Positions 8,106 to 56,901 of a DNA stretch of 64,000 bases are shown here, in pieces. The stretch is from Candidatus Omnitrophota bacterium (GTDB lineage: Bacteria > Omnitrophota > Omnitrophia > Omnitrophales > Aquincolibacteriaceae). The notes below the pieces were generated by a model. The model searched no databases. It was not told where the DNA came from and saw only the letters and a list, made by a program, of their open reading frames with translations. The stretch is from NCBI GenBank assembly GCA_030698625.1, contig JAUYMS010000041.1, forward strand, positions 11,314 through 75,313, in the 5' to 3' direction. Position 1 is the first letter of the stretch. Every line of letters starts with the position of its first letter. The translations under genes were made by a program, and so were the position numbers.

Positions 8106-8176
8106 TCCCTGTTCTCCATGATATCTGTTTCGGCCATTCAGGCTGAAATCCCAAGGGAAGGATACGCGCAGGAACG

Positions 8177-14423: not shown

Positions 14424-16100
14424 CTACGCAGACGACGGGCGGTTGGAGATAAGTATTTTTCCGTATTCGTCTTTGACGATGTGGTAGGTATCGACGCCGG
14501 TGCGCTGGCGCATGACTTGCAGTCTTTCTTTTTCCAGCAGACAATACACTTGTTTCTCTTTCCGGTTAAACATCGCGCCAAACACGTGTGCCGGCAGAAA
14601 CCATTCGCTTGATTCCCCCTGGTGGTCTTCGTCGATGCTCCCCTGGTCTAAGGTGCCTCTGTCCCCGCCGACCGTGACGATTCTTCGTTTAAGATAAAAC
14701 GGGAGATCAGAAAAACGGTCGGGGGAAGCAAAGACGGCCACCACGGTCTCCGGTGTTAATTGCGGCGCTATCTCCGAAGCAAAGGCGTAGGTGCTCTCGA
14801 GCGGACTCAGCTTGACCATGCCGGTAAAAATAACGAGAAGCACGGTGTAGATCATGCCGGACAGGCTCAAGATCGTCATGTCTTTACGTTTTTTGCGAAG
14901 CGCCCACAGACATAGCACCCCTCCCGCCGCCACCGCAAGGCTCCCCGTAAAAATGGTTGTCTTCAACATCACCATCTCCGGTTCACGCACCGCATAAACC
15001 GCAATGTTTAAACCGAAAAACCCCAACACACACACGACGCCGATAAACCCCATAGCGTAATGCAGCCATTTGCGCTCATTTTCGTGAAGGCGATCGGCTT
15101 TCCATGCCGCAAGAAGACCGGCGACCAGAATCGCCACAGGCACGCAGATCGGAACAATGTAGTACGGCAGTTTCCCCCTCGGAATACTGAAAAAAATAAA
15201 AATGACCGTGATCCAGCTCACGAGATATTTCGTTTTATCCCGCTCAATTTCTTCCCCCTTTAACCCCTGCAGCACGGCCGACGGCACAAGTAGTGCCCAC
15301 GGAAAGGTCACGACAACCGCGACGTAAGAGAAAAACCAGAACGGCCGGCTTCTCCCGAAACCGCCTGAGGCAAATCGCTCGAAGTGATGTTTCAAGATAA
15401 ATACGTCGAGAAACTCGGGTTCTACCCAGGACACGGCAACCACCCACGGGGCCACGACGAACAGCAGAATCACAATGCCCCAACCCAGGGAAACCCGCTT
15501 TATTTCCTCCAACCGCCCCGTCCAAACAAGAAAGACAAAGAAGATTAGCCCGGGTAAGACGACGCCGATCAACCCCTTGGTTAAAACGGTCAACCCCATA
15601 AAAAAATAGGCCCAGAGATAATTCGCCCGGCGCTGATCAAAATAGCCGCTCATCAGAAACAGAATTGAGGTGCTGAGCAGGAGAATCATCTGCATATCAA
15701 TCACCGCAAATCTGCCGACGAGGACATAGCCGATTGAGGTTAAGAGAAGCAGCGAGGCCAGCCTGGCCGTGGTATCAGAAAACAGGCGGCGCGTGAAAAT
15801 GTAGGTGACCAGAATGCCTAACAGGGCGGACAATATGGAAGGCAGCCGCAGAACAAGATCGGCTTCGCCGAGCAACCCGACAAACAGAGATGCCGCATAC
15901 GGCGCCAGAATCGGTTTTTCCAGATACTCCACGTAATTAAAATGCGGGACAATGAAATTCCTGCTCTCGAACATTTCCCTCGCTATTTCAGCGTAACGGC
16001 CTTCGTCAGAGGACCAAAGAGGTATAAGGTCCGCAACGAAGAAAAAAAGGAAAAAGCAGGCAAACACAAACCCCACGACGGGGAGTACTCTTTTTATCAT
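14424..16100 (-). CDS. ArnT/PMT-like membrane glycosyltransferase (GT39/GT83 family).
   Basis: Polytopic membrane protein with an N-terminal WSSDEGRYAEIAREM motif. This is the DE/RYAEIAREM signature of 4-amino-arabinose and mannosyl transferases. Confidence 0.75.
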   Translation of the reverse strand: MIKRVLPVVGFVFACFFLFFFVADLIPLWSSDEGRYAEIAREMFESRNFIVPHFNYVEYLEKPILAPYAASLFVGLLGEADLVLRLPSILSALLGILVTYIFTRRLFSDTTARLASLLLLTSIGYVLVGRFAVIDMQMILLLSTSILFLMSGYFDQRRANYLWAYFFMGLTVLTKGLIGVVLPGLIFFVFLVWTGRLEEIKRVSLGWGIVILLFVVAPWVVAVSWVEPEFLDVFILKHHFERFASGGFGRSRPFWFFSYVAVVVTFPWALLVPSAVLQGLKGEEIERDKTKYLVSWITVIFIFFSIPRGKLPYYIVPICVPVAILVAGLLAAWKADRLHENERKWLHYAMGFIGVVCVLGFFGLNIAVYAVREPEMVMLKTTIFTGSLAVAAGGVLCLWALRKKRKDMTILSLSGMIYTVLLVIFTGMVKLSPLESTYAFASEIAPQLTPETVVAVFASPDRFSDLPFYLKRRIVTVGGDRGTLDQGSIDEDHQGESSEWFLPAHVFGAMFNRKEKQVYCLLEKERLQVMRQRTGVDTYHIVKDEYGKILISNRPSSA

Positions 16101-28816: not shown

Positions 28817-30184
28817 CTATATTCTGGAGGTATTTAGCAGCGCCTGGGCATCGATCTTATTCTGGCGGAAGAGTTCCAGGTCGTCACGCCCGAAGATCCG
28901 CTGTTCGGTCTCCTGGGGCAGGGTCAGGCTGAGATAGTCATAATCACCGAAATGATAGCTCCTGAGAACATCGACAAACTCGCGGTAAATCAGGCTCAGG
29001 AGGTAAATCATGTCCTCATGGAAGAGCAGGGATTCACGGCTGTAGTTGTTGAAATCACGAAGTGCGACCGATTTGAAATCCAGTGAGAAACTCGGAGCTT
29101 TGTCCTCGATACCCTCATATTCCAGGGCCAGTCTCACCTCGCGGAAGGTATGCTGAATGCGCTCATCGACGGCCACGAGCGTTTGAATGCGCCGCGTAAG
29201 CTGTTGGGCCAGAAAAACCCCGACCTGGATATCCTCGGCTTTGAATTCCTCATCCCAGGATTCGAAGCTCTTTTCCATCTGGATTTCACGCGGGAAAGGT
29301 ATCTTCTTGAAATTCCCCCATTCGTCAAAAAACTGGAAGGGAATGATGCGGCTGATCATCGGCCTTTCCTTGTTGAAAGATACCATAGCCAGATACTGGG
29401 CTTGGGCGGGATCCTCGATGAGGTCAGCGCCTTCAAGCGTGGGCCGGGCCTTAACATGAACGATCACTTCCGACTGCTGCAGCTGCGTGCTGCGCATGTC
29501 TAAGACTTCCCACTGAACTTTTGCCGGTGATCCTTCACCGGCCTGAACCGTATTAAAAAACACGCCTTCAAGTGCGGCCTCAGTCACGGCCGGGTCGAAA
29601 TATTTGACCCGAATATCCTTAAGCGTGGACTGGTTCAGATCCGCAAATAACTGCCGAATGGGCTTGTGCCAAACAACGGCGCGGTTCTGTTTCATTTCGT
29701 AAATGACGCGCTTACGATATTCGTCGCGCGAGATATCCCAAATCCTCACCCGCTTCACATCATCCACATAGCCTTTAAGCACCAACTGCAGGCCGGTCCG
29801 TTCCACATCGGTCGCCTGCAGAATATAAAATTTGATATCGCGGTCGGTACTGAGCAATACACGCGAAATGGTAAAGAGCACATCCTCGACTTTGTCCATA
29901 GCCTCCGGCGAAGGCTCAAAGAGCGTCTCAAGATTTCGCACTTTCCCGGCAACTAGAGACTCTTTGAAGTCGGCGGCAAACAGCTTCTCGAGCGGAAGAT
30001 AGACACCGATCGTATGGCCGACAATTTTGACGTCAACGTTGTCGACATGGTACTCATCGCGGCAGATCTTTAGGATGGATTCTTTGAGTTGGTCACCCGG
30101 GTAGGACTTGCTGGAACAACCTGCCGCCGCTACCGCCACGATAAGCAGCAACAAAGCCGGTTTGAGGGGCGCGGTGATTCTCAT
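28817..30184 (-). CDS. Hypothetical lipoprotein.
   Basis: Signal peptide ending in the lipobox AAAGC. Confidence 0.6.
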   Translation of the reverse strand: MRITAPLKPALLLLIVAVAAAGCSSKSYPGDQLKESILKICRDEYHVDNVDVKIVGHTIGVYLPLEKLFAADFKESLVAGKVRNLETLFEPSPEAMDKVEDVLFTISRVLLSTDRDIKFYILQATDVERTGLQLVLKGYVDDVKRVRIWDISRDEYRKRVIYEMKQNRAVVWHKPIRQLFADLNQSTLKDIRVKYFDPAVTEAALEGVFFNTVQAGEGSPAKVQWEVLDMRSTQLQQSEVIVHVKARPTLEGADLIEDPAQAQYLAMVSFNKERPMISRIIPFQFFDEWGNFKKIPFPREIQMEKSFESWDEEFKAEDIQVGVFLAQQLTRRIQTLVAVDERIQHTFREVRLALEYEGIEDKAPSFSLDFKSVALRDFNNYSRESLLFHEDMIYLLSLIYREFVDVLRSYHFGDYDYLSLTLPQETEQRIFGRDDLELFRQNKIDAQALLNTSRI

Positions 30185-32539: not shown

Positions 32540-35344
32540 TCAAATATATGTCGCTTTTGGGGCCCCAGCTCGTCTTTTGTATTCCTTTAAATATTGACCA
32601 GTAAAAGAGTTGGGGCAATTCTCCAAACCGGCCAACGGCCCTGAGTAAACCAAATGCCCGCCGCCGTCGCCCCCTTCCGGCCCCAGATCGATCACGAAAT
32701 CCGCCGATCGGATCACTTCCATATTGTGTTCGATAATTAAAAGCGAGTGTCCCCGTTCGAGAAGCTCGTCGAGAGCCTGCATGAGATACTGAATGTCATG
32801 ATAATGCAGGCCGGATGTCGGCTCATCGAAAAGGTAAAGGATGTGATTAGCTGTCTGCTGTGTCATCTCAAAGGCAATCTTGAGTCTTTGTGCTTCACCT
32901 CCGGATAATGTCGTTGCCGATTGCCCAAGCCTTAGATAACCGAGCCCCACTTTTTGTAATATCTCGAGCCTCTCGATAAGCAAGCGCTCACGGGAAAAGA
33001 AAGCAGCGGCTTCATCGATGGTCATCGCCAAGACATCATCGATATTCTTTCCTTCGTATTTAATCTCTAAGACCTCCGGACGAAAACGCTTTCCTTCGCA
33101 TTCCTCACAGCGCACGAAGACATCCGCCAGAAAATGCATCTCGACTTTGATCTGCCCTTCTCCTTTGCACCGCGCACAGCGGCCCCCATCGACATTAAAG
33201 GAAAAGTGACTTGCAGTAAAACCCTCACGCTGCGACTCGCAGGTCCGGCCGAAAAGTTTTCTGATTTCATCGAAAGCTTTCATGTAGGTAACGGGATTTG
33301 AACGCGGCGTACGGCCGATCGGAGATTGATCAATCAGGCCTATCTGGTCGACGTTTTCAAAGCCGTCTACAGAATCGACTTTGCCGAGATCCTGCACCGG
33401 CTTTCCCTGAAATCTTAAGAAGTGATGATAAAGCACATCGTAGAGCAGTGTGCTTTTGCCGGAACCCGAAACGCCCGTCAGAACGACCATTTCCTGCAAA
33501 GGAATTTCCACATTGAGGTCTTTGAGGTTGTGTTCCCTTGCGCCCCGAATACGAATGGATCCCCCTAGGGTCTTCGGCTGCTTCCGCTTGCTGCGGCTAA
33601 CCGCGAGTTCTCCCGACAGGTACCGGCCCGTCAGAGACCCCTCTATATTCGCCAGCTTTTCAATGGGGCCCTGGAACAGCACTCTCCCGCCGTTCTCTCC
33701 GCCTGCCGGGCCCATATCCAGGACTTCGTCGGCAGCTTCGATCATAGTGCGATCATGCTCCACGACCACAACGGTATTCCCTAAATCGCGCAATTGTTTA
33801 AGTTGGCGAATCAGCAACCCATTGTCGCGTTCGTGCAGTCCGATACTCGGCTCATCCAATACGTACAGGGTATCCACGAGCGCCGACCCGAGAGAAGTTG
33901 CCAGATGAATTCTCTGCAGCTCTCCGCCCGAAAGCGTTCTCGATAGGCGCGCAAGGCTCAAATACCCCAAACCGATGCGGTCCAGAAACTCGATTCGTTT
34001 CTTGATCTCCAAATAAACCGGCTCCACCCTTTCGCGCTCCGGGCCCTTCAGCGCCGTCTCGACCTTCTGAAAGTATTCCTTCCATCTTGCCACCGTCATG
34101 GTCATAAGATCGGCAATATTGGTGCCTGCCACGCGAACACAGAGAGCTTCGGGCTTCAGGCGTGACTCGTGACATTCCGGGCACGGTTCGTAGCCGCGAT
34201 ATTTCGAAAGAAAAATGCGTACGTGCATCTTATAAGTCTTTGTGCCGAGATAGTCGAAGTAGTCCTTAACGCTGAAGTAGCCTTCTGTTTTAGGTGCACC
34301 GCGAAGAATGGATTCGCGATGCGCCGCACTTAAAGTGCGCCAGGAATCAGTAACGGAGATTTTCTTCTTTTTACAAAACGCCAGGAGCTGTTCAAAGTGC
34401 CACGCCGCGCTTGGCTTGGTCCACGGCTCTATGACCCCTTCGATAATGGATTTCCCTTCGTCGGGGATAATCAAATTCCAGTCGAGCGTGATCGTTCGCC
34501 CAAATCCCTGGCAAAGACCACATGCCCCCAGCGGGCTATTAAAGGAAAAGAGATTCGGCACGGGTTCCCGGAAAGCCTTCCCGCAATCCGAACACCTCAG
34601 GCCTTCGGAATACTGGAGAAGTTTGTCGGGAGTCTTCACCTGAATGGTCCCCTGCCCATAACGAAAGGCAAGCTCCAGGGAATCGACTAAGCGCTTCTTT
34701 TTGGCGGAATCTACTTTGAGACGGTCAGCGCAAACCGCTAGGCGGTCTGAGAGTGATTTCTGATGCTTAAGCACGCCTTCAGCATCAACCACTTTTCCCC
34801 GCACGAAGTATTCGACAAAGCCCTGCTTATCAAGCTCGGGAAGGAATTCTTTCAGGTACCGATTTCCTTTTTTTGCCAAGGGAAGTTCAAAGAGGATAAC
34901 AACTTCATGGCCCCTTTGAGAGCTGAGCAATTGATTGGCAATTGACGCGGGGTTGTGGGCAGTGACTTCGGACCCGCAATCGGGGCAATAGATCCGACCG
35001 GCGCGCGCAAAGAAGAGACGCAGGTAGTCGTTGATCTCGGTCTGTGTCCCCACCGTGGATCGGGCATTCGTAATGGAATTTTTTGACTGAATGGCAATAG
35101 CAGGCGGGATCCCGCTGACGCCCTCGATATCGGGCTTTTCCATGCGCTCAAGAAATTGACGAGCATAAGATGACAGCGATTCCACATAACGTCGCTGCCC
35201 TTCGGCATAAAGGGTATCAAAGGCAAGAGACGACTTTCCCGAACCAGAAACACCCGTGATTACATAAAGCTTACGGTGCGGAAGGATTAGGTCGAATCCC
35301 TTAAGATTGTGGGTTCTGACACCCCGGAGGAAAATGGCGTCCAT
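32540..35344 (-). CDS. uvrA: Excinuclease ABC subunit A.
   Basis: 934 aa. Two ABC ATPase modules with zinc-finger insertions (GVSGSGKSSLAFDTLYAEGQRRYVESLS). Confidence 0.95.
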   Translation of the reverse strand: MDAIFLRGVRTHNLKGFDLILPHRKLYVITGVSGSGKSSLAFDTLYAEGQRRYVESLSSYARQFLERMEKPDIEGVSGIPPAIAIQSKNSITNARSTVGTQTEINDYLRLFFARAGRIYCPDCGSEVTAHNPASIANQLLSSQRGHEVVILFELPLAKKGNRYLKEFLPELDKQGFVEYFVRGKVVDAEGVLKHQKSLSDRLAVCADRLKVDSAKKKRLVDSLELAFRYGQGTIQVKTPDKLLQYSEGLRCSDCGKAFREPVPNLFSFNSPLGACGLCQGFGRTITLDWNLIIPDEGKSIIEGVIEPWTKPSAAWHFEQLLAFCKKKKISVTDSWRTLSAAHRESILRGAPKTEGYFSVKDYFDYLGTKTYKMHVRIFLSKYRGYEPCPECHESRLKPEALCVRVAGTNIADLMTMTVARWKEYFQKVETALKGPERERVEPVYLEIKKRIEFLDRIGLGYLSLARLSRTLSGGELQRIHLATSLGSALVDTLYVLDEPSIGLHERDNGLLIRQLKQLRDLGNTVVVVEHDRTMIEAADEVLDMGPAGGENGGRVLFQGPIEKLANIEGSLTGRYLSGELAVSRSKRKQPKTLGGSIRIRGAREHNLKDLNVEIPLQEMVVLTGVSGSGKSTLLYDVLYHHFLRFQGKPVQDLGKVDSVDGFENVDQIGLIDQSPIGRTPRSNPVTYMKAFDEIRKLFGRTCESQREGFTASHFSFNVDGGRCARCKGEGQIKVEMHFLADVFVRCEECEGKRFRPEVLEIKYEGKNIDDVLAMTIDEAAAFFSRERLLIERLEILQKVGLGYLRLGQSATTLSGGEAQRLKIAFEMTQQTANHILYLFDEPTSGLHYHDIQYLMQALDELLERGHSLLIIEHNMEVIRSADFVIDLGPEGGDGGGHLVYSGPLAGLENCPNSFTGQYLKEYKRRAGAPKATYI

Positions 35345-35362: not shown

Positions 35363-35767
35363 CTATAGTTCGCGGCTCACGTGAAAATTGATGGCTTCGA
35401 GCAACTTGCCGCCGCCTAGGACATGCTGAGATTGGGGCGCAAGCGTTACGACGGTAAATTTACTGGTATCCCGCGTCACCAGCACCGTAACGGAGCGTTG
35501 GTCGGCATCATCATAGGCACGGAACTGCGTGTTGTATACACGAAGAATCCCTTGGGTCTTTTCAGTCGACTCGAGTTCCCATCCATCCACCCCTTCGAGG
35601 GCCTCCATGGTCCTTAAGTAGGTCAGGTCATAGGGTAGCTCGTAGCGGAGTGCTTCAGCATTTGCCGGCAGAACCTTGCTCTGAACCTCGTTTCGGAGAG
35701 TCTGACAACCGGTGGCGGAGATGGACAGCATAAGTATTAATATGAATCCGGATCGAAGTTGCATCAA
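35363..35767 (-). CDS. Hypothetical lipoprotein.
   Basis: Signal peptide with the lipobox SATGC. Confidence 0.55.
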   Translation of the reverse strand: MMQLRSGFILILMLSISATGCQTLRNEVQSKVLPANAEALRYELPYDLTYLRTMEALEGVDGWELESTEKTQGILRVYNTQFRAYDDADQRSVTVLVTRDTSKFTVVTLAPQSQHVLGGGKLLEAINFHVSREL

Positions 35768-35786: not shown

Positions 35787-38700
35787 TTAGAATTTACCCG
35801 TCAATCTCACAAACGGGCCGTGACTGTCAAAGTCAGTCTTCACACTTAGATCATCGTCAAAATCCGTGAAATTATAACCTAGTCCGACGCGAACGTAATC
35901 ATAAAACTCTCGGTCCACCTCGAGCAGGGTGCCGTGCTTTAGAGTACCGGCGGCCTCACTTTGCATGAGAATTCGGTATTCCAAGGCGATATCCCACTTC
36001 CGGGTCACGTGGACATTAAAGCGATTCACCCAAAGAAGCGTATCAATGACAATCTCATCGGTCACCGAGCTTGAAAAAATACCCTTCTTATAGGCCAGTT
36101 TTTCGACCAAACCCACGTATTTATGAAGGTCATAAGCCAAATCAACCGAAAGAATATGCGAACGCTCGTCAGTCGGCAACCCGGTAAACAGCCCCGTCGA
36201 GAACTGGATGTCATTGGCAATATTGTCCATATAGCTGTACTTGGTAAGCAAATTCAACTTGTCGTTGTCTACGGGGCGGTAAGCAAGCCCGACATTCATC
36301 TCGGTAAACGCCGCGCCGGTCTCATCCGGCTCAAGGAATCGTGACTTCCCGTAGTCCCAGTTGGCAAGGAAACTCAGGCTGTCAGAAATCTTATACTCGG
36401 CGCGATTGCGAATCACCCACTGCGAAAGCCGCGGGCTGTCCTGGTCACGACGATATTCCAGTGAAGCCCGAGCCCGAAATTTATCGGTGTCAGCATATTC
36501 AACGGCGCCGGCGATAGTATTAAAGGTGTTAGTACGCGTCAGTCCGGCATTGGCCTCCGCATCAAGCGCACGCGTCGTGCTGTTATCCAGATGCCGCCGT
36601 TCGAACTTCCATTCCACATTCCAACGATCTCCGATCTTGGTGTCGAGGCCGATGATGTCGCCATAGCCGTCAACACCGTCGTAGGTGGAGTGTTCGCGCT
36701 CGGAGTAAAAACGTGAGCGCTTGCTGATCGGAAAACTGCTGCCGACTGCGGTCGACAGACTCTTATGACCGATACCCCGGTCAAACATACGGATGTTGGC
36801 ATAACTGCGCACCCCTTCCGCGCGAATCTGCTCGAAACCGAAATAAGTAGAATCTCCGAGATTGCCGATCATTTGCTCAAGATACGCATAGAGGTCGTTG
36901 ACCATTTCATAACGCACACCGGCGCCGAGCTGGTGATTCGGTTTTCCGTCGAGGGTCGCCTGAAAACGCACATAGGGCAGGATGCGCTCGTTAAACTGGT
37001 ATCCGAGTTTACCGGCAACAACATTGCCCATGGGAGACTCCGAAAGCAAGCTTGGCGCAAGGGCCTCTTCGGCGGGCAGGTCGGTATAACGCCGCAGGTA
37101 CTCGGCTTCGGCAATCCATTTGGCATCACGGTAGTGAATCTGTGCCGTATGGGTCCTGAGATCTTTATAGGGCGCCACGATTCCGAGCGTCTCGGGCGTA
37201 CGCAACTGTGTGATGAGTTGGCTCTTATCCAAGCGGTAACGGACGGAGAGCTTCTCGTTAACTTTAAAACGCGCATCCAACCCGTACTTTTTGAAACCCT
37301 CCTGGGAACGAATCCGGTCGGTAGAAAATCCCGGATTCACGGCCTGGATGAAACCCGAAAGCTCCAATTGCTCGATGGGTTTAGATTCGGCCTTAATGAG
37401 CCAGGCATCCTCACGCTCATCCTGCCCCTTCAGCGGCGACAGTTCGGCGAAGCTGAGGCCGCCGTTATAAGAGACGGCCGTTTCCACCTGCTTGAGCCGT
37501 GTCTCGGCATACTCTGCCGTTACCTTGGTGTTGCGGCCGAGCTTGAGCGTGGCATCAAGGCCGCGCATATCGTAATCTACATTCTGGCGTTTCTCCTCAA
37601 CAAACGTACCGCCCAATTTTAAATGATCGCCAATGTGCGTATACCCCCGCAGACCGTGGTTATGATTTTCATGAACATTTAAACCCGCCTCGAACTCATA
37701 GTCGACCACCAGAAAGACCGGGCTCCCGTCAAGCAAATCGCCCGTCACCAGTGTATCGGAAGCGGCCACCGATGAGAGCGGCCGCGAAAGCATAATGCGC
37801 CCTTCGTCATAATCAATTTCGTAGTCGATCCCTTCCATTAAATCGTGACTATCTACGGAAATATTGCTGATCTTGTCGTGAATCTCCACACGGACTTTTT
37901 CGCTACCTTCGACGACACTTCGGTTTCGCAGGTAATAAAGAGAGCCGCCCGTGGCCGCGAATTCATTGTGATCTCCGCGCGTTGACGACTTATTCCAGAA
38001 AAGATCCATGGCGCGGTTCGGATCGCCGTAAACGGTGCTCCCCAGCGTCTCATAATGGGCCTTGAGGCCGGATAAAGTGCGGTTGTATGTGGCGAGCTCC
38101 GTGTCGGTGAAGTTTGTTTCAAAACTGCCCCATTTGACGTAGGAGCGATCCATTTCGATGAGGAGAAAAAGTTGTTGACGCGTACCCAGCCCTTCGTAAT
38201 CGCGTTCAGAATTATCTCCGTAGACCGGATAGTAGTCATCGGGATCCAGGTTCCGGAAAAATGCCGAACTGGCGCCGTCGGAATCGTAGCGCGACTTGAT
38301 CAGGAATTTCCCCTTCAATTTTCCTTTCAAATAGTAGGATAGGCGCCCTTCCTCATAGAAGCCCTGCTTGAACTCATCGTCGTGAACGGCCTTCTTGATA
38401 TTATCGCCGCCGAAGTTCACGCCCAGTTCTTCTTCGCCCAACCCCACCATGAAAAACATACTGTCCTTGACCGTAACTGTTTCGCGGTAGGTCGTTGTCT
38501 CACCGTCGGGCGTCGTGGCCCCCACGACGATCTCCTTGTCACCGGGACTCACATAGAATTCGATCTGGAAAAGGCCGCTCGAAGGGTCAACATCGACATG
38601 CTGCGTATTTATCGTTACGGAATTTTCGGGCAGTGTCTTACCGCGCACACGAACCGTGGGTTTCGCAACCAGCGGAATGGACTGTTTGCCGTCCTGAAAC

Positions 38701-40394
38701 AGATTAAAATCACCGATCGCGGGAATCTTGATATCGGCATTCGGCAATATGGCCTCGGCCTTCGAAACTACCCGGAAAAACTTGAGTGCGGTCCAGTCCT
38801 CGCGCCCTTCCTTGTCCTTGACTTTGAACTGATATGAATAGATTCCGGGTTTGATGAGAAATCCGTCTTCGGTCTGTCCCGACCACGTCACTTCGGCCGG
38901 AGGCGCTGAGAGCCCAAAGCCCGTCCACACTTCGCCACCCACCTCATCTCGCACCTCGAGATACCACGTCTTAACAAAATCCGCATAATTCATCCTAAAG
39001 CGGAAAATCGGCTCCTTTTCCAAAACGCCCAATCCGCCTTTCAGCATCTCGGGCTCCATCGTCACATCAAGCGCCGGCCGAGAAGTATCAATTCCCTGCG
39101 TCACGCTCACATTCAGGTCGTCTTGAAACTCTTTCGGAATATGCGAGGGGGGCAACAAGACGGCAAAGTTAGCTTTGCTCATAATGCCGGGCGTTGTTCG
39201 CACCAGATAAGATTCTTCTGAAATGAATTTGGTTCCGGGCGTCAGGGAATGACCGTCGATCTTGACGATATGCCGCCCGACTTTCACTGCCGGAATAAAA
39301 TATCGCCCAAACTCATCAGTCGTGATAGCAATTCCCTCTTCGGTAAACAGACGGACCCAAGGCACACCCATCTCTCCGTCGTTCTGTACGCCGTCTTGAT
39401 TGGCGTCATGAAATACCTTACCGATGATCGTGCCCTGTTCAAAGACAGGGTCCGGCCGTATGAGCAGTTGCACCTTGGCCCTTTCTGAGACCTCACTGCC
39501 GCTCAATACATTAATAAGAATGTCATAGAGCTTCCCGGTCGTGACGGCTGAAGTTACGAGCAACTGAAAGCTCGTGTTGACGGTCTCAAGGGGACCGAGA
39601 TTGCCCACGGAAATAAAAACCGACCCTTCTTCAAACGGGACCCGCCGATCATTGACGCGCACCGACTGCGGCAAGAGATCGAAGCCAACCGGAAAATCAG
39701 CGAAGAGCTGGGTGCCCGGCAGCGCGCTGTCGGAGACATTGGTGAACTGCGCAAAAATCGTTACCGCGTCCCCGGGCTTAACCGCATTGTTCGAAGCCGA
39801 AACCACGAGTTTTGCGGGATTGATGTCACCGGTCACGTCATCAAAGAGTACGTTGCCGTTCGCACCCAGGATGCGAAGGGTAAAGACAATACGCTCCGTG
39901 CCTTCGGGCGCCGTCCCCGAAGCCGTAAACCGTTGGAATCCCGCGCCGGGCGGCGCATTCGTGCTATCGATAAAAGGAGAGACCACATCCGAAATCAGGA
40001 CATCCGAATTACTTGCTTCATTGACCCTTTTGAACTCGATGCGCAACTGCGCACCCTGCCCCGCTCCGTTGGCAACGTTGGACTCAACTAACGCACTGAA
40101 GGTGACAAAATCACGCGGATTGACCGGCTCTGAGGTCTGGAAGGTAAACTGCGCCGTCGTCGCCAGAAGGAGCGCAAAGGCACCCTCCGGGGGCTGCGAA
40201 AACCCGGCCGGAAACGTCCCGTCACCTGGAGTCACGCGCACGGCACCGTTTGTGATGTCCCAGTTTCCGGCGGTTCCATTGCCGATTTCCTGTTCGAAAC
40301 TCGTATTTCCGATAATGTTGGCATACGCGGGAGCGGCACCCATCAGCGACACCAACACGCTCCATAAAATAGTGTGAAGTAATTTTGTTCTCAT
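35787..40394 (-). CDS. Giant (1535 aa) outer-membrane protein with an N-terminal Ig-like/SdrD-B-like region and a large C-terminal beta-barrel-like domain.
   Basis: Signal peptide. An SdrD-B-type motif reads GKVFHDANQDGVQNDGEMGVPWVRL...TTDEFGRYFI. The aromatic/Gly-rich C-terminal half ends in ...FVRLTGKF (a C-terminal Phe typical of outer-membrane proteins). Confidence 0.7.
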   Translation of the reverse strand: MRTKLLHTILWSVLVSLMGAAPAYANIIGNTSFEQEIGNGTAGNWDITNGAVRVTPGDGTFPAGFSQPPEGAFALLLATTAQFTFQTSEPVNPRDFVTFSALVESNVANGAGQGAQLRIEFKRVNEASNSDVLISDVVSPFIDSTNAPPGAGFQRFTASGTAPEGTERIVFTLRILGANGNVLFDDVTGDINPAKLVVSASNNAVKPGDAVTIFAQFTNVSDSALPGTQLFADFPVGFDLLPQSVRVNDRRVPFEEGSVFISVGNLGPLETVNTSFQLLVTSAVTTGKLYDILINVLSGSEVSERAKVQLLIRPDPVFEQGTIIGKVFHDANQDGVQNDGEMGVPWVRLFTEEGIAITTDEFGRYFIPAVKVGRHIVKIDGHSLTPGTKFISEESYLVRTTPGIMSKANFAVLLPPSHIPKEFQDDLNVSVTQGIDTSRPALDVTMEPEMLKGGLGVLEKEPIFRFRMNYADFVKTWYLEVRDEVGGEVWTGFGLSAPPAEVTWSGQTEDGFLIKPGIYSYQFKVKDKEGREDWTALKFFRVVSKAEAILPNADIKIPAIGDFNLFQDGKQSIPLVAKPTVRVRGKTLPENSVTINTQHVDVDPSSGLFQIEFYVSPGDKEIVVGATTPDGETTTYRETVTVKDSMFFMVGLGEEELGVNFGGDNIKKAVHDDEFKQGFYEEGRLSYYLKGKLKGKFLIKSRYDSDGASSAFFRNLDPDDYYPVYGDNSERDYEGLGTRQQLFLLIEMDRSYVKWGSFETNFTDTELATYNRTLSGLKAHYETLGSTVYGDPNRAMDLFWNKSSTRGDHNEFAATGGSLYYLRNRSVVEGSEKVRVEIHDKISNISVDSHDLMEGIDYEIDYDEGRIMLSRPLSSVAASDTLVTGDLLDGSPVFLVVDYEFEAGLNVHENHNHGLRGYTHIGDHLKLGGTFVEEKRQNVDYDMRGLDATLKLGRNTKVTAEYAETRLKQVETAVSYNGGLSFAELSPLKGQDEREDAWLIKAESKPIEQLELSGFIQAVNPGFSTDRIRSQEGFKKYGLDARFKVNEKLSVRYRLDKSQLITQLRTPETLGIVAPYKDLRTHTAQIHYRDAKWIAEAEYLRRYTDLPAEEALAPSLLSESPMGNVVAGKLGYQFNERILPYVRFQATLDGKPNHQLGAGVRYEMVNDLYAYLEQMIGNLGDSTYFGFEQIRAEGVRSYANIRMFDRGIGHKSLSTAVGSSFPISKRSRFYSEREHSTYDGVDGYGDIIGLDTKIGDRWNVEWKFERRHLDNSTTRALDAEANAGLTRTNTFNTIAGAVEYADTDKFRARASLEYRRDQDSPRLSQWVIRNRAEYKISDSLSFLANWDYGKSRFLEPDETGAAFTEMNVGLAYRPVDNDKLNLLTKYSYMDNIANDIQFSTGLFTGLPTDERSHILSVDLAYDLHKYVGLVEKLAYKKGIFSSSVTDEIVIDTLLWVNRFNVHVTRKWDIALEYRILMQSEAAGTLKHGTLLEVDREFYDYVRVGLGYNFTDFDDDLSVKTDFDSHGPFVRLTGKF

Positions 40395-42452
40395 TTAGAA
40401 ACGTCTCTGTGAAAAACTCATGCCGAATCTCAAGTCCCAATTTGTTGCGAAAGGCGCTTCCCCGTCCTGTTTCGCATTCTGCACGCCTCCGACACCGACA
40501 TACTCGACAAAAAGCTTTGTCTTCGACAGCCACTCATTTTCCTTGAAACGGTAACTCATGAAGGGCATCCACCGCACCCCGGCGCCCAGGAAATAACGGT
40601 TCTGAAAGGGGAAGGAAAATTCCGAATTGTTGACATGCTCCGCATGCAGATAAGGCATCAAAACGAGTTCGTCATTAAACGGGTTAGGCGGAAGCGGAAT
40701 ACCGGGGAGTTTAAACCCCAGAATCACGGAAGAATTCCAGATGAAGGCGTCAAAATTATTCAGGCTGGAGAAGTTCGTCATCTCAAAGCGATAATCCCCG
40801 AAGTACTCGCCCCACACATACCGCCGGACAAACTCAGGAACGCTGTCGGGGCTCTTTTCGGAGACCGGCGGCAAATCGACGCCCCACTCATAGAATATTT
40901 GGACGCCCGCACGAAGATCGTAATCGCGGCTGCCAATGATTTCGCCTTTGAGGTTTTTACGATTAAAGTACTGCACATACGCGCGATAGTTTTTCACCCA
41001 CTCAAGAAGCGGCAGACCCCACGGACGGAAGTTATAGAAGAATGTATTGTATTGGAACGGGCGCCACTCGAGCCCGGCGCTCAGATCCAGGTGCGATGCG
41101 GCATCGACACCGTTGGACTCTAAAGCCGCTGTCGCTTCCACGAAAGGATCGACCGTACTCAACGGGAACCGAATCCCTTTAAACACCAACCGATTTGTCC
41201 AGAAACCTACCTGGTCGGCAAAGTTTTCCGCATCCAAATTGGTTTGTCTCCAGGTTGTTTCACCGAAAGACTGCCAGACCAGGGGCTCGCCCGACGGGAT
41301 CCCGTAGAAAGGCCCGTAGAGCTTATTGCCGATATCCAATTGGTCGATGTATTTGAGGAAAAGCTGCTCTTCCTTTTCAAACTGAGCTTGTGTCTTTTGG
41401 GGCGGTAGGTCGGCTTCGATCTGAATTCGGATATAGTTCTGCGCCTCTTCCACCATTTTCTTGAAATCGCCGCCGCTCGCCTCAACAACTGCCTTGATCA
41501 TGATGATCTCACCGCGCGCTTTGTCTTCCGATAGATACCCGCGGTGCCCCACATAATAGAGATAGTGTTCTGTGCCGTCGGCGCCAGCTAACTTTAAACG
41601 CCGGATTTCGGCCCCTTCAAACGTGCCCGACTCCATGACTTCATCAAACCATTTTCGGATCTCGCGAACATCCTTCGCATTAGGAAGCGGCCGGGTCCTG
41701 AGTACATTTTCGCCGAAATCAGTGACAATAGAATATCGCGAGCCGGACCCAAGCTCGGTTTCGGGAACCAGAACAAAGCCGGAAAGTTCCGTGGTTTGAT
41801 AAGCGAGCTTCTGATCAGGGCCCATAAAAAAATGCTCCGCAAAAAGATTCTTTGGACCCTCGGCCTTAGCGGGTGCTTTCCGCTTTGCCGAACTGATGGG
41901 AATCGCCATGCGCTCTCTCGACTCTTCTTGTGGTTGCTCGACCTGGGGCACCGCAAGCTGTGAGTAAGTCGGCTCCATCTTCATCGGAAGCGGTTCGGGT
42001 TCCACCGGGGCTACTTTCAATGTAGGCGTCGGTACCGGTGTGGGAAAGGGCGTTGGAATCGGTGTAGGAAAAGGCGTAGGCATCGGCGTCGGAAATGGGG
42101 TTGGGAAGGGTGTGGGCATCGGCGTCGGGTCCGGTGTCGCGCGATAGGACGGCTCGACTTTCGACGACGTGTCTTCAGCTGCGATGTCCTCGCCAGAAGT
42201 CAGCCAGTTTTCCGACTCATCCCAAGACGGCTGGGTTGAAGGAGCCGGCGTCGGCGATGATTGCGTCTCAGTCTCAACCCACCCCTTAAGATCGCTCCAT
42301 TCATCGTCCCAAGGATCGTCAGCCTCATCGATACCCGCATCCCGAGCTTTGTCGGGGTCATACCCCTCATCCCCGAAGACTGCCGGTGATGCAAAAACTG
42401 TCACAAAAATCAAGCCAATGATAAGACAACGGTAGCTACAGAGTTTGGTCAT
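40395..42452 (-). CDS. Outer-membrane protein with a (PTPF/M/I/V)n linker and a C-terminal beta-barrel-like domain.
   Basis: Signal peptide, then an acidic region, then PTPMPTPFPTPFPTPMPTPFPTPIPTPFPTPVPTPT. The C-terminus ends in ...MSFSQRRF. Its stop abuts the start of 35787..40394. Confidence 0.65.
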   Translation of the reverse strand: MTKLCSYRCLIIGLIFVTVFASPAVFGDEGYDPDKARDAGIDEADDPWDDEWSDLKGWVETETQSSPTPAPSTQPSWDESENWLTSGEDIAAEDTSSKVEPSYRATPDPTPMPTPFPTPFPTPMPTPFPTPIPTPFPTPVPTPTLKVAPVEPEPLPMKMEPTYSQLAVPQVEQPQEESRERMAIPISSAKRKAPAKAEGPKNLFAEHFFMGPDQKLAYQTTELSGFVLVPETELGSGSRYSIVTDFGENVLRTRPLPNAKDVREIRKWFDEVMESGTFEGAEIRRLKLAGADGTEHYLYYVGHRGYLSEDKARGEIIMIKAVVEASGGDFKKMVEEAQNYIRIQIEADLPPQKTQAQFEKEEQLFLKYIDQLDIGNKLYGPFYGIPSGEPLVWQSFGETTWRQTNLDAENFADQVGFWTNRLVFKGIRFPLSTVDPFVEATAALESNGVDAASHLDLSAGLEWRPFQYNTFFYNFRPWGLPLLEWVKNYRAYVQYFNRKNLKGEIIGSRDYDLRAGVQIFYEWGVDLPPVSEKSPDSVPEFVRRYVWGEYFGDYRFEMTNFSSLNNFDAFIWNSSVILGFKLPGIPLPPNPFNDELVLMPYLHAEHVNNSEFSFPFQNRYFLGAGVRWMPFMSYRFKENEWLSKTKLFVEYVGVGGVQNAKQDGEAPFATNWDLRFGMSFSQRRF
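42023..42140. repeat. Tandem 12-nt coding repeat (the plus-strand read GGTGTGGGAAAGGGCGTTGGAATCGGTGTAGGAAAAGGCGTAGGCATCGGCGTCGG...) encoding the PTPx linker.
   Basis: Read directly. It consists of imperfect 12-nt units. Confidence 0.6.
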
Positions 42453-43252
42453 GCCATCCCGAGTACTTGCCGCATGTCGTAGAGACCGTGCCGCCTCTTC
42501 GCCACAAACCGCGCGGCGCGAAGCGCCCCCTGAGCAAAGGCCTCGCGTGAACTTGCGCGATGAGTTAGTTCCAGCCTTTCCCCGTCTCCGAGATAGAAAA
42601 CAGTATGATCCCCGACTACATCTCCGCCCCTAAAAGCCAAAACTCCGATCTTCCCCCGGCTACGTGCCCCCGTTTCGCCCCGGCGTCCGTAAACGGTGTC
42701 ACGCGAAGGGTTCCTCTTGCGCGCCTTGGCAACAATCTCCAGGAGTTTCATGGCGGTACCGCTCGGCGCGTCTTTCTTCATGCGATGGTGTGTTTCAGCT
42801 ATTTCAATATCATAATCCTCTGTCAGCACCCCGGCGGTTACCTCACTGAGCCAGAACAAAATGTTAACCCCAATGCTCATATTCGGGGCTTGCACGATAG
42901 GAATCTTCTTTGACGCCGTCTTTAACGACTTAAGCGCAGCCGCCTTTAGACCTGTCGTGCCCAAGACATAACCCGTCTTATTCTTTACGCAGGCCTTGAG
43001 ATTCGCGTTCAGGGCACTCGGATGGCTAAAGTCGATGAGAACGTCGGCAGATTGTAAAGCCACAGAGGGGCTTGTCGTTAAACGCACTCCGACCGGATCG
43101 CAACCTAGAAGGGTGCCGATATCTTGGCCTAGGCTCGGGCAGGCGGCCATCTCGAGCGCACCGGTAATCTTAAAAGCGCGATCCTTGGCAGCCAAGCCAA
43201 GAATAGTTTGGCCCATGCGGCCCGCCGCACCCGCCATGGCAATTCGAATCAT
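42449..43252 (-). CDS. dapB: 4-hydroxy-tetrahydrodipicolinate reductase.
   Basis: MIRIAMAGAAGRMGQ Rossmann motif plus the DapB C-terminal domain. Confidence 0.9.
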   Translation of the reverse strand: MIRIAMAGAAGRMGQTILGLAAKDRAFKITGALEMAACPSLGQDIGTLLGCDPVGVRLTTSPSVALQSADVLIDFSHPSALNANLKACVKNKTGYVLGTTGLKAAALKSLKTASKKIPIVQAPNMSIGVNILFWLSEVTAGVLTEDYDIEIAETHHRMKKDAPSGTAMKLLEIVAKARKRNPSRDTVYGRRGETGARSRGKIGVLAFRGGDVVGDHTVFYLGDGERLELTHRASSREAFAQGALRAARFVAKRRHGLYDMRQVLGMA

Positions 43253-44133
43253 TGAATAACTCCCAAGGTCTTAAGAACTTTTCTGAGCTTCTGTTGGTTA
43301 GCTTTGGTCATCGCGCAAAGCGGCAATCTGAGTTCGGGCTTGATCTTGCGCATCATTCCCAATGCCGTCTTCACCGGAATCGGATTCGATTCGACAAAAA
43401 GCACTTTGGCCAACTCATACATCTCCTGATGAAGCGCGCGCGCACCCACCATGTCACCTTTCAAAGCCCGGTGCACCATCGCCCGAACCTTGATGGGTAC
43501 AATATTCGCCGTTACAGAAATCACTCCGCGGGCCCCGATGGCCATCATCGGGAAAGTCAGGCCGTCATCCCCGGAAAGAACCGTAATATCGCAAAGAGAC
43601 AGGATCTCGTCGACCTGCCCCAGATCGCCGCTTGCCTCTTTAACGGCGACCACGGTATCGATCTTGGCCAACCGTGCAACCGTATGAGGAGACAGAGATA
43701 CCCCCGTCCGGCCCGGTACATTATATAGAACCATTGGTATATCGACTTTTGAGGCTAAATATTGATAATGGCGGTAGAGCCCCTCTTGGGTAGGCTTGTT
43801 GTAGTAAGGGGTTACGACAAGGACGCCGTCGGCTTTGGCTCGCCTGGCATACCGGACCAGTCCCAGCGCCTCTTCGGTGTTGTTCGACCCCGCGCCACAG
43901 ATGACCGGCGCTCGGCCGTCGACATACTCGACCACGATCGACATCAGCCGCCTATGCTCGTCATGCGACATCGTCGCCGACTCCCCGGTGGTACCGCAGG
44001 GAATCAGAACATCGGTACCGCTTCGAAGATGAAAATCCAGCAATCCCCGCAAGGCCTTCCGGTCAATCTTACCGTTTCTGAAAGGAGTGACCAGCGCTAC
44101 CATGGAACCTTCGAATTGCCGTGCTTTTGCCAT
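43249..44133 (-). CDS. dapA: 4-hydroxy-tetrahydrodipicolinate synthase.
   Basis: Start reassigned to MAKARQFEGSMVALVTPF (ATG at 44131-44133). It contains the GTTGE motif. Confidence 0.9.
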   Translation of the reverse strand: MAKARQFEGSMVALVTPFRNGKIDRKALRGLLDFHLRSGTDVLIPCGTTGESATMSHDEHRRLMSIVVEYVDGRAPVICGAGSNNTEEALGLVRYARRAKADGVLVVTPYYNKPTQEGLYRHYQYLASKVDIPMVLYNVPGRTGVSLSPHTVARLAKIDTVVAVKEASGDLGQVDEILSLCDITVLSGDDGLTFPMMAIGARGVISVTANIVPIKVRAMVHRALKGDMVGARALHQEMYELAKVLFVESNPIPVKTALGMMRKIKPELRLPLCAMTKANQQKLRKVLKTLGVIQ

Positions 44134-44162
44134 GACTACCCTCTCGACATTACCCGCACTAT

Positions 44163-44981
44163 TTATGAAATGGTTCCTTCGTAGACAAACTGCGCTTCGC
44201 CTTCTAAATAAACGTCCCACACCCGGGTGCCTGTGACTTGAAAATCTATCTTGAGAATCTCTCCTCCGCTGGTCTTAACATTCACCGGAGGCTTTGTGTA
44301 ACCCATGAGTGTGCTTACAATGGCTGATGCCGTAGAGCCGGTACCGCAAGCCAACGTTTCACCTTCGACGCCTCGCTCATAGGTGCGAACGAGAATATCC
44401 TTTTCCCCTTTAATTTCCACGAAATTCACATTGGTTCCCTTGGGCTTAAAGGCTTGGTCGTGGCGAACCGCGCGGCCGAGGGCAGCGACGTCTATTTTCG
44501 AGATTCCCTCCACAAAGATCACCGTATGCGGGACTCCCGTATTAATAAATGAGTAATGCAGGCGATTGCCCAGGACAGAGATCTCCCGGCGTTCGCGATA
44601 ATCTTTGGTTCTTGCGAGCTGCACGCGGATCTTGGCGCCGTTGATTTCAGCGCGTATCACGCCCGACTGGGATTCAAAACGAAATTTGGAGGCAGCCCCA
44701 TGCTTCTCAACCGCGTATCTGGCAATGCAGCGGAATCCGTTGCCGCAAGCCTCAGCTTCGGAGCCGTCGGAGTTAATGATACGCATCTTAAAATCGGCTC
44801 GCGAGGACTTTTCATAAAGGAGCAGGCCGTCGGCACCGACCCCCGAATGACGTGGGCAGACCCGTTTTGCAAAGGAAACCGGATCGCGCAAAATCTGCTC
44901 GCGGTTATCAATGACAATGAAGTCATTGCCTGAAGCCACCATTTTGTAGAAAGGTATGGTCGTAGTCATATTTAAACTCAT
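44163..44981 (-). CDS. dapF: Diaminopimelate epimerase.
   Basis: FYKMVASGNDFIVID plus the C-terminal GNGxRC motif. Confidence 0.9.
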   Translation of the reverse strand: MSLNMTTTIPFYKMVASGNDFIVIDNREQILRDPVSFAKRVCPRHSGVGADGLLLYEKSSRADFKMRIINSDGSEAEACGNGFRCIARYAVEKHGAASKFRFESQSGVIRAEINGAKIRVQLARTKDYRERREISVLGNRLHYSFINTGVPHTVIFVEGISKIDVAALGRAVRHDQAFKPKGTNVNFVEIKGEKDILVRTYERGVEGETLACGTGSTASAIVSTLMGYTKPPVNVKTSGGEILKIDFQVTGTRVWDVYLEGEAQFVYEGTIS

Positions 44982-56166: not shown

Positions 56167-56901
56167 ATGGCCCCAAAAAACACACCGTCTATCGCCATAA
56201 ATGCCAAGAAAGCCCTTAAGATCCGCTTCAACAAGAACGCCCTTCTGGAGGCCGCTCTCACCCACCCTTCATACCGTAACGAAAACCGCTGCCCGAAACT
56301 TGATAATTTCGACCGCATGGAGTTCTTCGGTGATGCCGTTCTCAACTACATCATCTGCCGGAAACTCTACACGCTCTTTCCGGACGCGGACGAAGGGCAG
56401 CTAAGCCGTCTCCGTTCCACGCTTGTCTCCAGAAGAATTCTCTCGCGCATCGCAAAAGATCTGGGCCTAGCCAATGTGATGCTGCTCGGTAAAAGTCTCA
56501 GACGCCAATCCGCCAGCGTAAAGTCCAAAGTCCTTGCCGACACGTTCGAAGCGGTCATTGCCGCTGTCTACCTCGACCAGGGTTTAGCGCGCGTCCAAAA
56601 GTTTATCTTAGACCATTTTACGGGCTACTTCGATGCCAAGCGCCTGCTCAGACTCGACCCCAATCCAAAAAGTCTTCTCCAGGAAATATGCCAAAAACAC
56701 TGGCAGAAGCTTCCTCAATACGCCCGCAGCCAGGGCACTCGCGGCATTAAAACTGAGATTCGAGTTCGACCGGGAGTTAACATTCTTGCCTGGGGAAGGA
56801 CTCGTCGTGCTTCGGAAGAAAAGGCGGCACGGCTTTTAATCCGAAAAATTCGTCAGAGATTTTCGCGGCCTTTGAAGAAAAGCTCTTCCGGCAAGAAGTG
56901 A
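56167..56901 (+). CDS. rnc: Ribonuclease III.
   Basis: RNase III signature ERMEFFGDAV plus a dsRBD. Confidence 0.9.
   Translation: MAPKNTPSIAINAKKALKIRFNKNALLEAALTHPSYRNENRCPKLDNFDRMEFFGDAVLNYIICRKLYTLFPDADEGQLSRLRSTLVSRRILSRIAKDLGLANVMLLGKSLRRQSASVKSKVLADTFEAVIAAVYLDQGLARVQKFILDHFTGYFDAKRLLRLDPNPKSLLQEICQKHWQKLPQYARSQGTRGIKTEIRVRPGVNILAWGRTRRASEEKAARLLIRKIRQRFSRPLKKSSSGKK

Follow-up and report, generated by a model that had tools for sequence, protein, structure and literature searches.

A 64,000-nucleotide stretch of a Candidatus Omnitrophota genome (contig JAUYMS010000041.1), referred to below as the window, carries two adjacent minus-strand genes for predicted outer-membrane (OM) proteins of 685 and 1535 amino acids (aa), here called p685 and p1535. 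We propose that p1535 is a minimal fused member of an unnamed and widespread protein family, whose giant β-barrel takes a fibrillar surface protein exported by Sec across the OM and anchors it there, and put the probability of this reading at about 0.55. In the window, the two genes are located between the dap genes and uvrA, in the following order:

44163-44981, minus strand: dapF, upstream of dapA
43249-44220, minus strand: dapA, between dapF and dapB
42449-43252, minus strand: dapB (4-hydroxy-tetrahydrodipicolinate reductase), a context gene outside the proposed system
40395-42452, minus strand: p685, a predicted 685-aa OM protein
35787-40394, minus strand: p1535, a predicted 1535-aa fusion of a short fibrillar stalk and a giant C-terminal barrel module
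35363-35767, minus strand: lip134, a 134-aa predicted lipoprotein with the lipobox ...SATG/C
32540-35344, minus strand: uvrA, downstream of lip134

The TAA stop codon of p685 directly abuts the ATG of p1535, leaving no nucleotide between the two genes, and the start of p685 and the stop of dapB share 4 nucleotides (nt), ATGA. The lip134 gene starts 19 nt past p1535 and has its own GGAGG Shine-Dalgarno sequence. A scan for promoters and terminators returned nothing that exceeded shuffled expectation. The N-termini of both large proteins are, as judged by eye, Sec signal peptide-like (MRTKLLHTILWSVLVSLMGAAPAYA/N and MTKLCSYRCLIIGLIFVTVFASPAVFG/D), and Phe is the last residue of both. The original prediction for this DNA, which described two abutting open reading frames (ORFs) right downstream of dapB, whose products have signal peptides and C-terminal Phe residues, is therefore accurate in these respects.

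The domains assigned in p1535 are:

39825-40319, minus strand: tip domain, residues 26-190, jelly-roll-like by motif only, with a weak NF048003 match
39453-39824, minus strand: CLIPPER/DUF11-like domain, residues 191-314, which aligns to the DUF11 regions of P0099 and P0101
39147-39452, minus strand: SdrD_B-like domain, residues 315-416, with matches to PF17210 and to SdrD in the Protein Data Bank (PDB)
38757-39050, minus strand: FlgD_Ig-like domain, residues 449-546, with a sub-threshold PF13860 match
38460-38696, minus strand: immunoglobulin (Ig)-like domain abutting the barrel, residues 567-645, Glucodextran_B-like
35790-38459, minus strand: giant β-barrel module with about 40 predicted transmembrane strands, residues 646-1535, end ...LTGKF
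37728-38015, minus strand: small β domain, residues 794-889, an insert that separates barrel strands 6 and 7, with the motifs GGSLYYLRNR...GSEKVRVE...DYEIDYDEGRI

An AlphaFold2 model of the module was built for residues 640-1535 of p1535 (896 residues) with 50 homologs. The model is all-β, with 41 long strands in addition to the inserted domain, a predicted local distance difference test score (pLDDT) of 76.5 and a predicted template modelling score (pTM) of 0.74. The inserted domain contains short strands at local positions 155-230 and is highly conserved throughout the family, some alignment columns being invariant even among diverse members. All loops of at least 13 aa between strand 6 and the C-terminus are located on one side, and strands 1-5 are of opposite parity. 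A single broken strand would explain this parity flip, in which case the module has about 40 true strands and a periplasmic N-terminus. In the family alignment, 24 of the 41 strands are amphipathic. Foldseek matches at a probability of 1.0 are confined to OM barrels, i.e., TonB-dependent transporters, SlpA, SprA, MtrB, LptD and FimD, and the template modelling (TM) score against all solved barrels is at most 0.26, with a root-mean-square deviation (rmsd) of at least 19 Å. With a Sec signal, amphipathic all-β strands, an aromatic C-terminus and likeness to known barrels, the module has the general attributes of an OM barrel; its predicted class is clear, and no solved fold matches the module as a whole. 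The earlier assignment of both products as OM β-barrels thus holds at the level of structure prediction (AlphaFold2 models, and a Foldseek probability of 1.0 to OM barrels). Soluble β-sandwich repeats had been named as the outcome that would speak against barrels; the predictions for the C-terminal parts of the proteins did not give this outcome, and the N-terminal 620 residues of p1535 are Ig-like sandwiches.

By standard barrel geometry, 40 strands would correspond to a Cα diameter of ~7 nm and a lumen of ~6-7 nm, which should be wide enough for folded Ig-like domains. SprA, with 36 strands, has been stated to be the largest known barrel, and barrel surveys based on AlphaFold-DB leave out proteins of more than 1,280 residues (bioRxiv 10.64898/2026.03.07.710327). 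If the number of about 40 strands is correct, the module is predicted to be larger than any known single-chain barrel.

The stalk that precedes the barrel contains the SdrD_B motif and the Ig-like segments that were anticipated in the original prediction. PF17210 (SdrD_B) matches residues 326-380 with an E-value of 7e-5, which is under the gathering score, and the same match is recorded for most orthologs; the family profile matches the solved SdrD structure with an E-value of 3.8e-7. In PDB sequence searches with single sequences as well as profiles, the SdrD domain was the only part to find a match. Further Ig-like matches are FlgD_ig at residues 464-526 and Glucodextran_B at 576-643, and PF01345 is recorded for the CLIPPER/DUF11-like domain in some orthologs. 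As for fibrillar-adhesin stalks, p1535 thus combines CLIPPER/DUF11 and SdrD_B domains, the latter sub-threshold in p1535 itself. The mean pairwise identity varies along the protein, and amounts to 0.37 for the tip, 0.37 for the CLIPPER-like domain, 0.72 for the SdrD_B-like domain, 0.65 for the N-terminal part of the barrel and 0.64 for the inserted domain, such that the SdrD_B-like domain is the best-conserved part of p1535 and the tip the least conserved. Being the most variable part, the tip behaves as expected for a surface-exposed element, and the gradient as a whole fits an exposed tip with a stem that contacts, and perhaps plugs, the pore. The tip domain is specific to the Omnitrophota orthologs, and only 6 of 137 family representatives carry it.

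The distribution of the module was assessed by an exhaustive phmmer search of 1.84 billion representatives, with clusters defined at 50% identity. Relatives were found in 2,913 clusters at E ≤ 1e-3 and in 952 at E ≤ 1e-30. The complete module, 848-1,155 aa in length, is present in 137 of the best 150 representatives. It forms the C-terminus of the protein in 100 of these 137, and 91 of the 100 end in Tyr, Phe or Trp. Between 0 and 6,715 aa precede the module in these proteins, and this upstream part contains SdrD_B-like (112 of 137), CLIPPER-like (104), FlgD_Ig-like (99), abutting Ig (81) and OmpA (41) domains. Within the modules of relatives, matches to Pfam families of small barrels are seen (OMP_b-brl, Porin_4, DUF2490, Legionella_OMP and DUF481), and those to OMP_b-brl, Porin_4 and DUF2490 exceed the gathering score. 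The carriers belong to Proteobacteria, Planctomycetota and Omnitrophota, and include metagenome-assembled genomes (MAGs) of Deltaproteobacteria and Planctomycetes, Cocleimonas, and Kangiella spongicola, as well as plasmids or chromids of Croceibacterium, Ralstonia, Vibrio campbellii, Eleftheria terrae, Sinorhizobium meliloti and Sulfitobacter, among others. The proposal of a lineage-specific system consequently stands for p685, which appears to be restricted to Omnitrophota, and falls for the p1535 barrel, which extends to cultured Proteobacteria and to Planctomycetota.

Literature searches, which did not extend to subscription-only papers, brought up no earlier account of the family or of the two Omnitrophota proteins. 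The plasmid and chromid homologs are annotated as “hypothetical”, “OmpA family protein” or “TonB-dependent receptor”, and the last of these is the RefSeq name of many homologs (Kangiella locus L079, 2165-5878; plasmid homologs H7-H9, H11 and H13-H15). The TonB-dependent receptor domains PF07715 (Plug) and PF00593 (TonB_dep_Rec) are absent from p1535 and from the Kangiella protein P0487. Since P0487, the sole homolog tested, is without both domains, the name looks like a propagated misannotation. DeepTMHMM calls of β-barrels in Omnitrophota proteins of 10,556 and 15,129 aa have been dismissed as artefacts (bioRxiv 10.64898/2026.06.07.730766); as the module is C-terminal in proteins of up to 7,612 aa, those two calls might represent real C-terminal barrels.

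The function that we assign to the barrel follows from its genetic coupling to giant adhesins. The 11 non-core loci examined contain 12 barrel genes, all of which adjoin or are fused with a gene for a giant secreted repeat protein, in most cases a CLIPPER/SdrD_B adhesin. The fused proteins reach 7,612 aa, and have arrays of CLIPPER, Calx-β and SdrD_B domains with an OmpA domain ~250 aa upstream of the barrel. In Proteobacteria there are usually two genes, where an adhesin of 2,600 to more than 5,300 aa with CLIPPER, SdrD_B and CshA domains is encoded beside the barrel gene; elsewhere, adhesin and barrel form a single polypeptide. The arrangements are:

Kangiella: adhesin with a C-terminal OmpA domain, its gene overlapping the start of the barrel gene
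Cocleimonas: adhesin of at least 3,391 aa, adjoining the barrel gene
Locus L083: adhesin (at least 5,344 aa) that carries a Sec signal peptide
Locus L084: two barrel genes with an adhesin gene next to each, and a CBM_2 tip on one of the adhesins
Omnitrophota paralog: CLIPPER/SdrD_B protein adjoining the barrel gene
S. meliloti: 3,362-aa DUF11 protein with a 4-nt overlap with the barrel gene
E. terrae: 2,647-aa SdrD_B protein followed by OmpA and barrel, the OmpA domain being on the barrel protein
V. campbellii: 3,771-aa DUF11 protein followed by the barrel
Planctomycetes: giant PQQ β-propeller protein in place of the adhesin
Two long-read contigs: separate fragments for adhesin, OmpA and barrel, which probably reflect frameshifts in fused genes

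The cargo proteins have tips of extracellular type, e.g., CBM_2 and GEVED. The OmpA domain is found at the C-terminus of the adhesin, at the N-terminus of the barrel protein, or in-line when the two are fused, and its presence on either side of the junction would be expected if all forms derive from an adhesin-OmpA-barrel assembly. These loci thus combine a C-terminal module of ~890 aa with a fused or adjacent giant repeat protein, the arrangement by which we define the family; p1535 itself was the query. The unannotated genes right downstream of the distant barrel genes were mutually unrelated. In L084 (2855-13618), a MacB-type ABC/FtsX/membrane-fusion gene set is located between the two barrel-module genes, which is a hint that some systems may have an energised partner in the inner membrane. 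In L089 (20059-28921, Eleftheria terrae), a type II secretion/pilus-like cluster (secretin, GspE, GspF and pseudopilins) is located ~3 kb from the adhesin-barrel pair.

A cargo that is exported by Sec, and that has extracellular-type tips together with a periplasmic wall-binding tail, must cross the outer membrane, and a barrel that is fused or adjacent to the cargo is the obvious conduit and anchor. From the demonstrated part, i.e., barrel class, family breadth and genetic coupling, we infer the following mechanistic steps. The protein would cross the inner membrane via Sec, and its C-terminal barrel would be inserted by the β-barrel assembly machinery (BAM). The N-terminal tip and stalk would then pass outward through the wide lumen, while the stem, consisting of the SdrD_B-like, FlgD_Ig-like and Ig domains together with the strand 6/7 insert, would stay in or under the pore as a plug. 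Where an OmpA domain is present, it would tie the base to the cell wall. The Omnitrophota version has a short passenger with a tip and four Ig-like domains, and is conserved phylum-wide in a nearly housekeeping-like manner, translationally coupled to p685 and followed by lip134. In these ultra-small bacteria, which are often attached to hosts, its role is likely that of a constitutive surface spike for attachment, and a surface or secretion role is also the direction of the original prediction in which the wider evidence points.

As for p1535, p685 has a modular architecture:

42372-42452, minus strand: signal peptide, residues 1-27 by eye, with an AlphaFold2 helix at 5-20
41868-42371, minus strand: residues 28-195, disordered (pLDDT < 50), with an acidic stretch and the (PTPx)9 linker
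42021-42128, minus strand: (PTPx)9 repeat, residues 109-144, nine exact P-T-P-x copies
41337-41855, minus strand: α/β domain, residues 200-372, pLDDT > 90, whose last 18 residues (355-372) form a helix shortly ahead of the barrel
40398-41282, minus strand: predicted 12-strand β-barrel, residues 391-685, end ...FSQRRF

The AlphaFold2 model of p685 was built from 56 sequences. Residues 28-100 contain 23 Asp or Glu versus 4 Lys or Arg, which, together with the exact proline-rich repeats, agrees with the acidic N-terminus and (PTPx)n linker noted previously. The linker region is variable or absent among the homologs, which range from 475 to 929 aa and share only the C-terminal ~520 aa. The model contains 12 long β-strands at residues 391-684, and Foldseek searches against the PDB returned OM barrels of 12-14 strands (E-values of 2e-6 to 1e-3, TM ≤ 0.48, identity ~10-13%), i.e., the COG4313 channel, the β-domains of BrkA, Hbp, EspP, AIDA-I and NalP, and CymA, OmpG, NanC and FapF. 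The closest structural matches are the COG4313 channel and the autotransporter β-domains. No Pfam family consistently matches any of the 56 family members, and PF03797 (Autotransporter) has no match in p685 or p1535 at E ≤ 1. As modelled, p685 is a 12-strand barrel of ordinary size with an autotransporter-like layout, and not a giant barrel. The original prediction of barrels of 700-800 residues hence applies to p1535 only, as the β region of p685 comprises ~295 aa. The suggested misfit to autotransporter, TonB-dependent and LptD layouts, and also to those of ushers and SprA, stands for p1535 (no match above cutoff to the respective hidden Markov models, HMMs; TM ≤ 0.26). The lipoprotein lip134 gave no family match in HMM scans, and may be a third component of the system. 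Together, p685 and lip134 are most likely accessory subunits that act in assembly, gating or tethering.

To describe conservation within the phylum, one genome per GTDB species was scanned for p685/p1535 loci. The scan yielded 74 loci, every one labelled Omnitrophota or unnamed MAG. The genes for p685 and p1535 occur in the same order in 67 of the 74, and the remaining 7 contigs stop before the second gene. Full-length homologs of both proteins show 40-62% identity, come nearly all from Candidatus Omnitrophota MAGs, and are all annotated as hypothetical. The dapF-dapA-dapB genes are found upstream in all loci that have at least 1 kb of upstream DNA, except L017 and L061, and lip134 is detectable downstream in 43 related loci, followed by uvrA. 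A p685 homolog (P0140) labelled “Verrucomicrobiae bacterium” (MAG) is either a mis-binned Omnitrophota contig or the sole hint of the protein outside the phylum. The rate of evolution of the two large proteins is about 1.4-1.5 times that of the enzymes encoded nearby (mean distances of 0.73-0.79 versus 0.39-0.59). In a mirror-tree comparison of 38 loci, the distance matrices of p685 and p1535 gave the top raw correlation (0.959) and the top partial correlation (0.535) of 15 gene pairs, which is suggestive of co-evolution, the figure not being a probability.

Several points weigh against the proposed role of p1535, and some of these concern the barrel itself. Closure of the barrel and the exact strand number are read from secondary structure and pTM, and the AlphaFold2 model is least confident for the first and the last strand (pLDDT 53-66). 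In mean-field direct coupling analysis (DCA) of the global alignment (270 sequences), gap blocks dominated the signal and most controls with adjacent strands failed; in a sub-alignment (363 sequences) the mid-barrel hairpins were recovered, and all strand-1 pairs failed. Because the controls with strand 1 failed, the missing seam signal is uninformative and does not constitute evidence against closure. Furthermore, the dapFAB-p685-p1535-lip134-uvrA block is wholly syntenic, which makes adjacency alone weak functional evidence. A sceptical interpretation would be that the single giant barrel is a prediction artefact that stands for several smaller barrels, an open β-sheet or a solenoid, with p685 and p1535 as unrelated neighbours held together by synteny. 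In addition to the low confidence at the terminal strands and the undetected seam coevolution, this interpretation could draw on a block of low confidence at local positions 540-640, on the fact that HMMER often breaks the module into two stretches, and on the functionally unrelated dap genes and uvrA, which are equally syntenic. We nevertheless consider it improbable, as the pTM over 896 residues argues for one rigid fold, the long loops from strand 6 on occupy the same side as in a continuous transmembrane meander, and the module is inherited as one unit in 137 of 150 representatives. The negative DCA seam result lends it nothing, as the strand-1 controls failed, and the leading partial correlation between p685 and p1535 speaks against unrelated neighbours.

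The remaining adverse points concern cargo and partners. Export through the lumen is read from gene fusion or adjacency and from domain types. In the Planctomycetes MAG locus L086 (3458-12138), the protein that overlaps the barrel gene start is a 1,852-aa PQQ β-propeller repeat protein, which implies that the type of cargo can vary. No relatives of p685 were found beside the distant barrel genes (hhalign probability < 1%, no match with hmmsearch). Because p685 and lip134 have no counterpart outside Omnitrophota, they are best treated as lineage-specific accessories, and the role of p685 is a guess. In HMM scans p1535 is without OmpA and SLH domains, of which the lack of OmpA is unfavourable. 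Finally, the high conservation of p1535 is unusual for an adhesin, and would suit a structural role in the envelope as well.

Such a structural role is best represented by SlpA of Deinococcus, a 30-strand barrel, and OmpM of Negativicutes, in which a wall-binding domain is located N-terminal to a large C-terminal barrel. By analogy, the Ig array of p1535 could be a periplasmic strut and the barrel an abundant structural pore in an envelope tether that exports nothing. OM barrels normally begin from the periplasm, and ~30% of the module relatives have an in-line or N-terminal OmpA peptidoglycan-binding domain just ahead of the barrel. SlpA also has the highest query-normalised TM score of the PDB matches (0.21-0.23), the Pro-rich rod of p685 could span the periplasm, and both large proteins are kept phylum-wide almost like the neighbouring enzymes. 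In contrast to SlpA and OmpM, the module family has no SLH domain or coiled coil and is coupled to giant adhesins, and p1535 itself has no wall-binding domain. A tether also accounts poorly for passengers of up to 6,700 aa with CBM_2, GEVED, CshA_repeat and isopeptide-stabilised CLIPPER stalks (PMC12617251), and for a p1535 tip that is the most variable part, as for an exposed tip. An envelope tether with a giant porin is therefore an unlikely explanation.

Similarities to SprA are also noted, namely that a giant single-chain OM barrel is tied to surface adhesins and accompanied by both a smaller barrel and a small protein resembling a plug. A general translocon of this kind would have p1535 export other folded cargo, with p685 as a PorV-like partner and lip134 as the plug, a trio of barrel, smaller barrel and lipoprotein that recalls SprA-PorV-Plug. 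The very large predicted lumen would allow this, the barrels of the split systems do act on a separate polypeptide, and SprA is among the Foldseek matches. A weak match to the SprA HMM TIGR04189 in the inserted domain (E 0.0045) reaches 14.2 bits against a cutoff of 200 and covers 88 residues only. Kinship with SprA on the basis of this match was rejected, since none of six diverse family members reproduces it. The query-normalised TM score to SprA is only 0.17-0.20, with an rmsd of ~31 Å, and the module comprises 890 aa compared with ~2,400 aa for SprA. The cargo in the module family is fused or adjacent and not tagged with a C-terminal domain, p1535 brings its own passenger, and the module occurs in phyla without a type IX secretion system (T9SS); no T9SS genes were seen in the window. 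In addition, p685 resembles the 12-strand autotransporter and COG4313 barrels, and not the 14-strand FadL-like PorV. Taken together, a SprA-like translocon is very improbable.

Compared with type V secretion, the conduit-and-anchor proposal for p1535 invokes a related layout. Like type V proteins, p1535 and its fused relatives have a Sec signal, an N-terminal passenger and a C-terminal barrel in one chain, the split relatives keep cargo and barrel in adjacent genes as in type Vb, and p685 on its own, with passenger, helix and 12-strand barrel, is similar to type Va. Unlike these systems, the module has ~890 aa and about 40 predicted strands compared with 12 (Va) or 16 (Vb), and the module proteins show no PF03797, Omp85 or POTRA signal. 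The passenger consists of Ig-like CLIPPER/SdrD_B domains and not of a β-helix, an in-line OmpA wall anchor is common, and the pore would, by its geometry, fit folded domains. In the chaperone-usher pathway, FimD and PapC have 24 strands, with a plug domain placed between the sixth and the seventh. The β-sandwich insert of the module is also located between strands 6 and 7, and ushers are among the fold matches, a similarity that may be coincidental; there is no usher HMM match, no chaperone or pilin genes, and the module barrel is far larger. The TM score of the module to structures of TonB-dependent transporters, which have 22 strands, is at most 0.26, and LptD/OstA HMMs gave no match to p1535, with a query-normalised TM of 0.15-0.18 to LptD, a 26-strand barrel with an N-terminal β-jellyroll and an LptE plug. 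The module family thus falls outside type V, SprA and SlpA/OmpM.

A further comparison is with the Gram-negative CLIPPER fibrillar adhesin B9T28_05395 of Acinetobacter silvestris, which has an “OmpA-like anchoring domain” (PMC12617251). The split systems share with it an adhesive tip, a CLIPPER/cadherin-like stalk and a C-terminal OmpA domain, but whereas no OM component is named for the Acinetobacter protein (PMC12617251), a giant barrel gene is consistently fused or adjacent in the systems described here. A more ambitious version of our proposal, which we regard as tentative and somewhat short of an even chance, is that the module represents a new class of OM secretion and anchoring system, in which about 40 strands form a pore that exports folded, isopeptide-stabilised adhesins in cis or trans with an OmpA hold on the wall, and in which p685-p1535-lip134 would be a phylum-wide, three-component version for host attachment.

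Elsewhere in the window, an 838-aa protein (56853-59369, minus strand) matches the AsmA family of envelope lipid-transport proteins in its C-terminal part, with a score that narrowly misses the gathering threshold. A caspase-domain (Peptidase_C14) protein is encoded at 6714-8282 and a PMT_2/ArnT-like membrane glycosyltransferase at 14424-16100 (both minus strand). Four further minus-strand ORFs of 696, 763, 455 and 407 aa (890-2980, 9513-11804, 28817-30184 and 8177-9400, respectively) have no Pfam match at E ≤ 1e-5.

The OM route of CLIPPER/SdrD_B adhesins with an “OmpA-like anchor” has so far been unnamed, and the barrel gene provides a testable candidate. Barrel-adhesin pairs occur in tractable bacteria (S. 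meliloti, V. campbellii, Kangiella and E. terrae), and the name “TonB-dependent receptor” on the RefSeq homologs should be rechecked. A barrel of about 40 strands would, if true, exceed the largest known single-chain barrel. The main study of the phylum portrays Omnitrophota as ultra-small bacteria that are often attached to hosts, adhesion being a recurrent theme, and leaves these proteins unmentioned. The p685-p1535 locus points to a conserved, putative envelope complex on which cell-cell attachment of these uncultured nanobacteria may be based.

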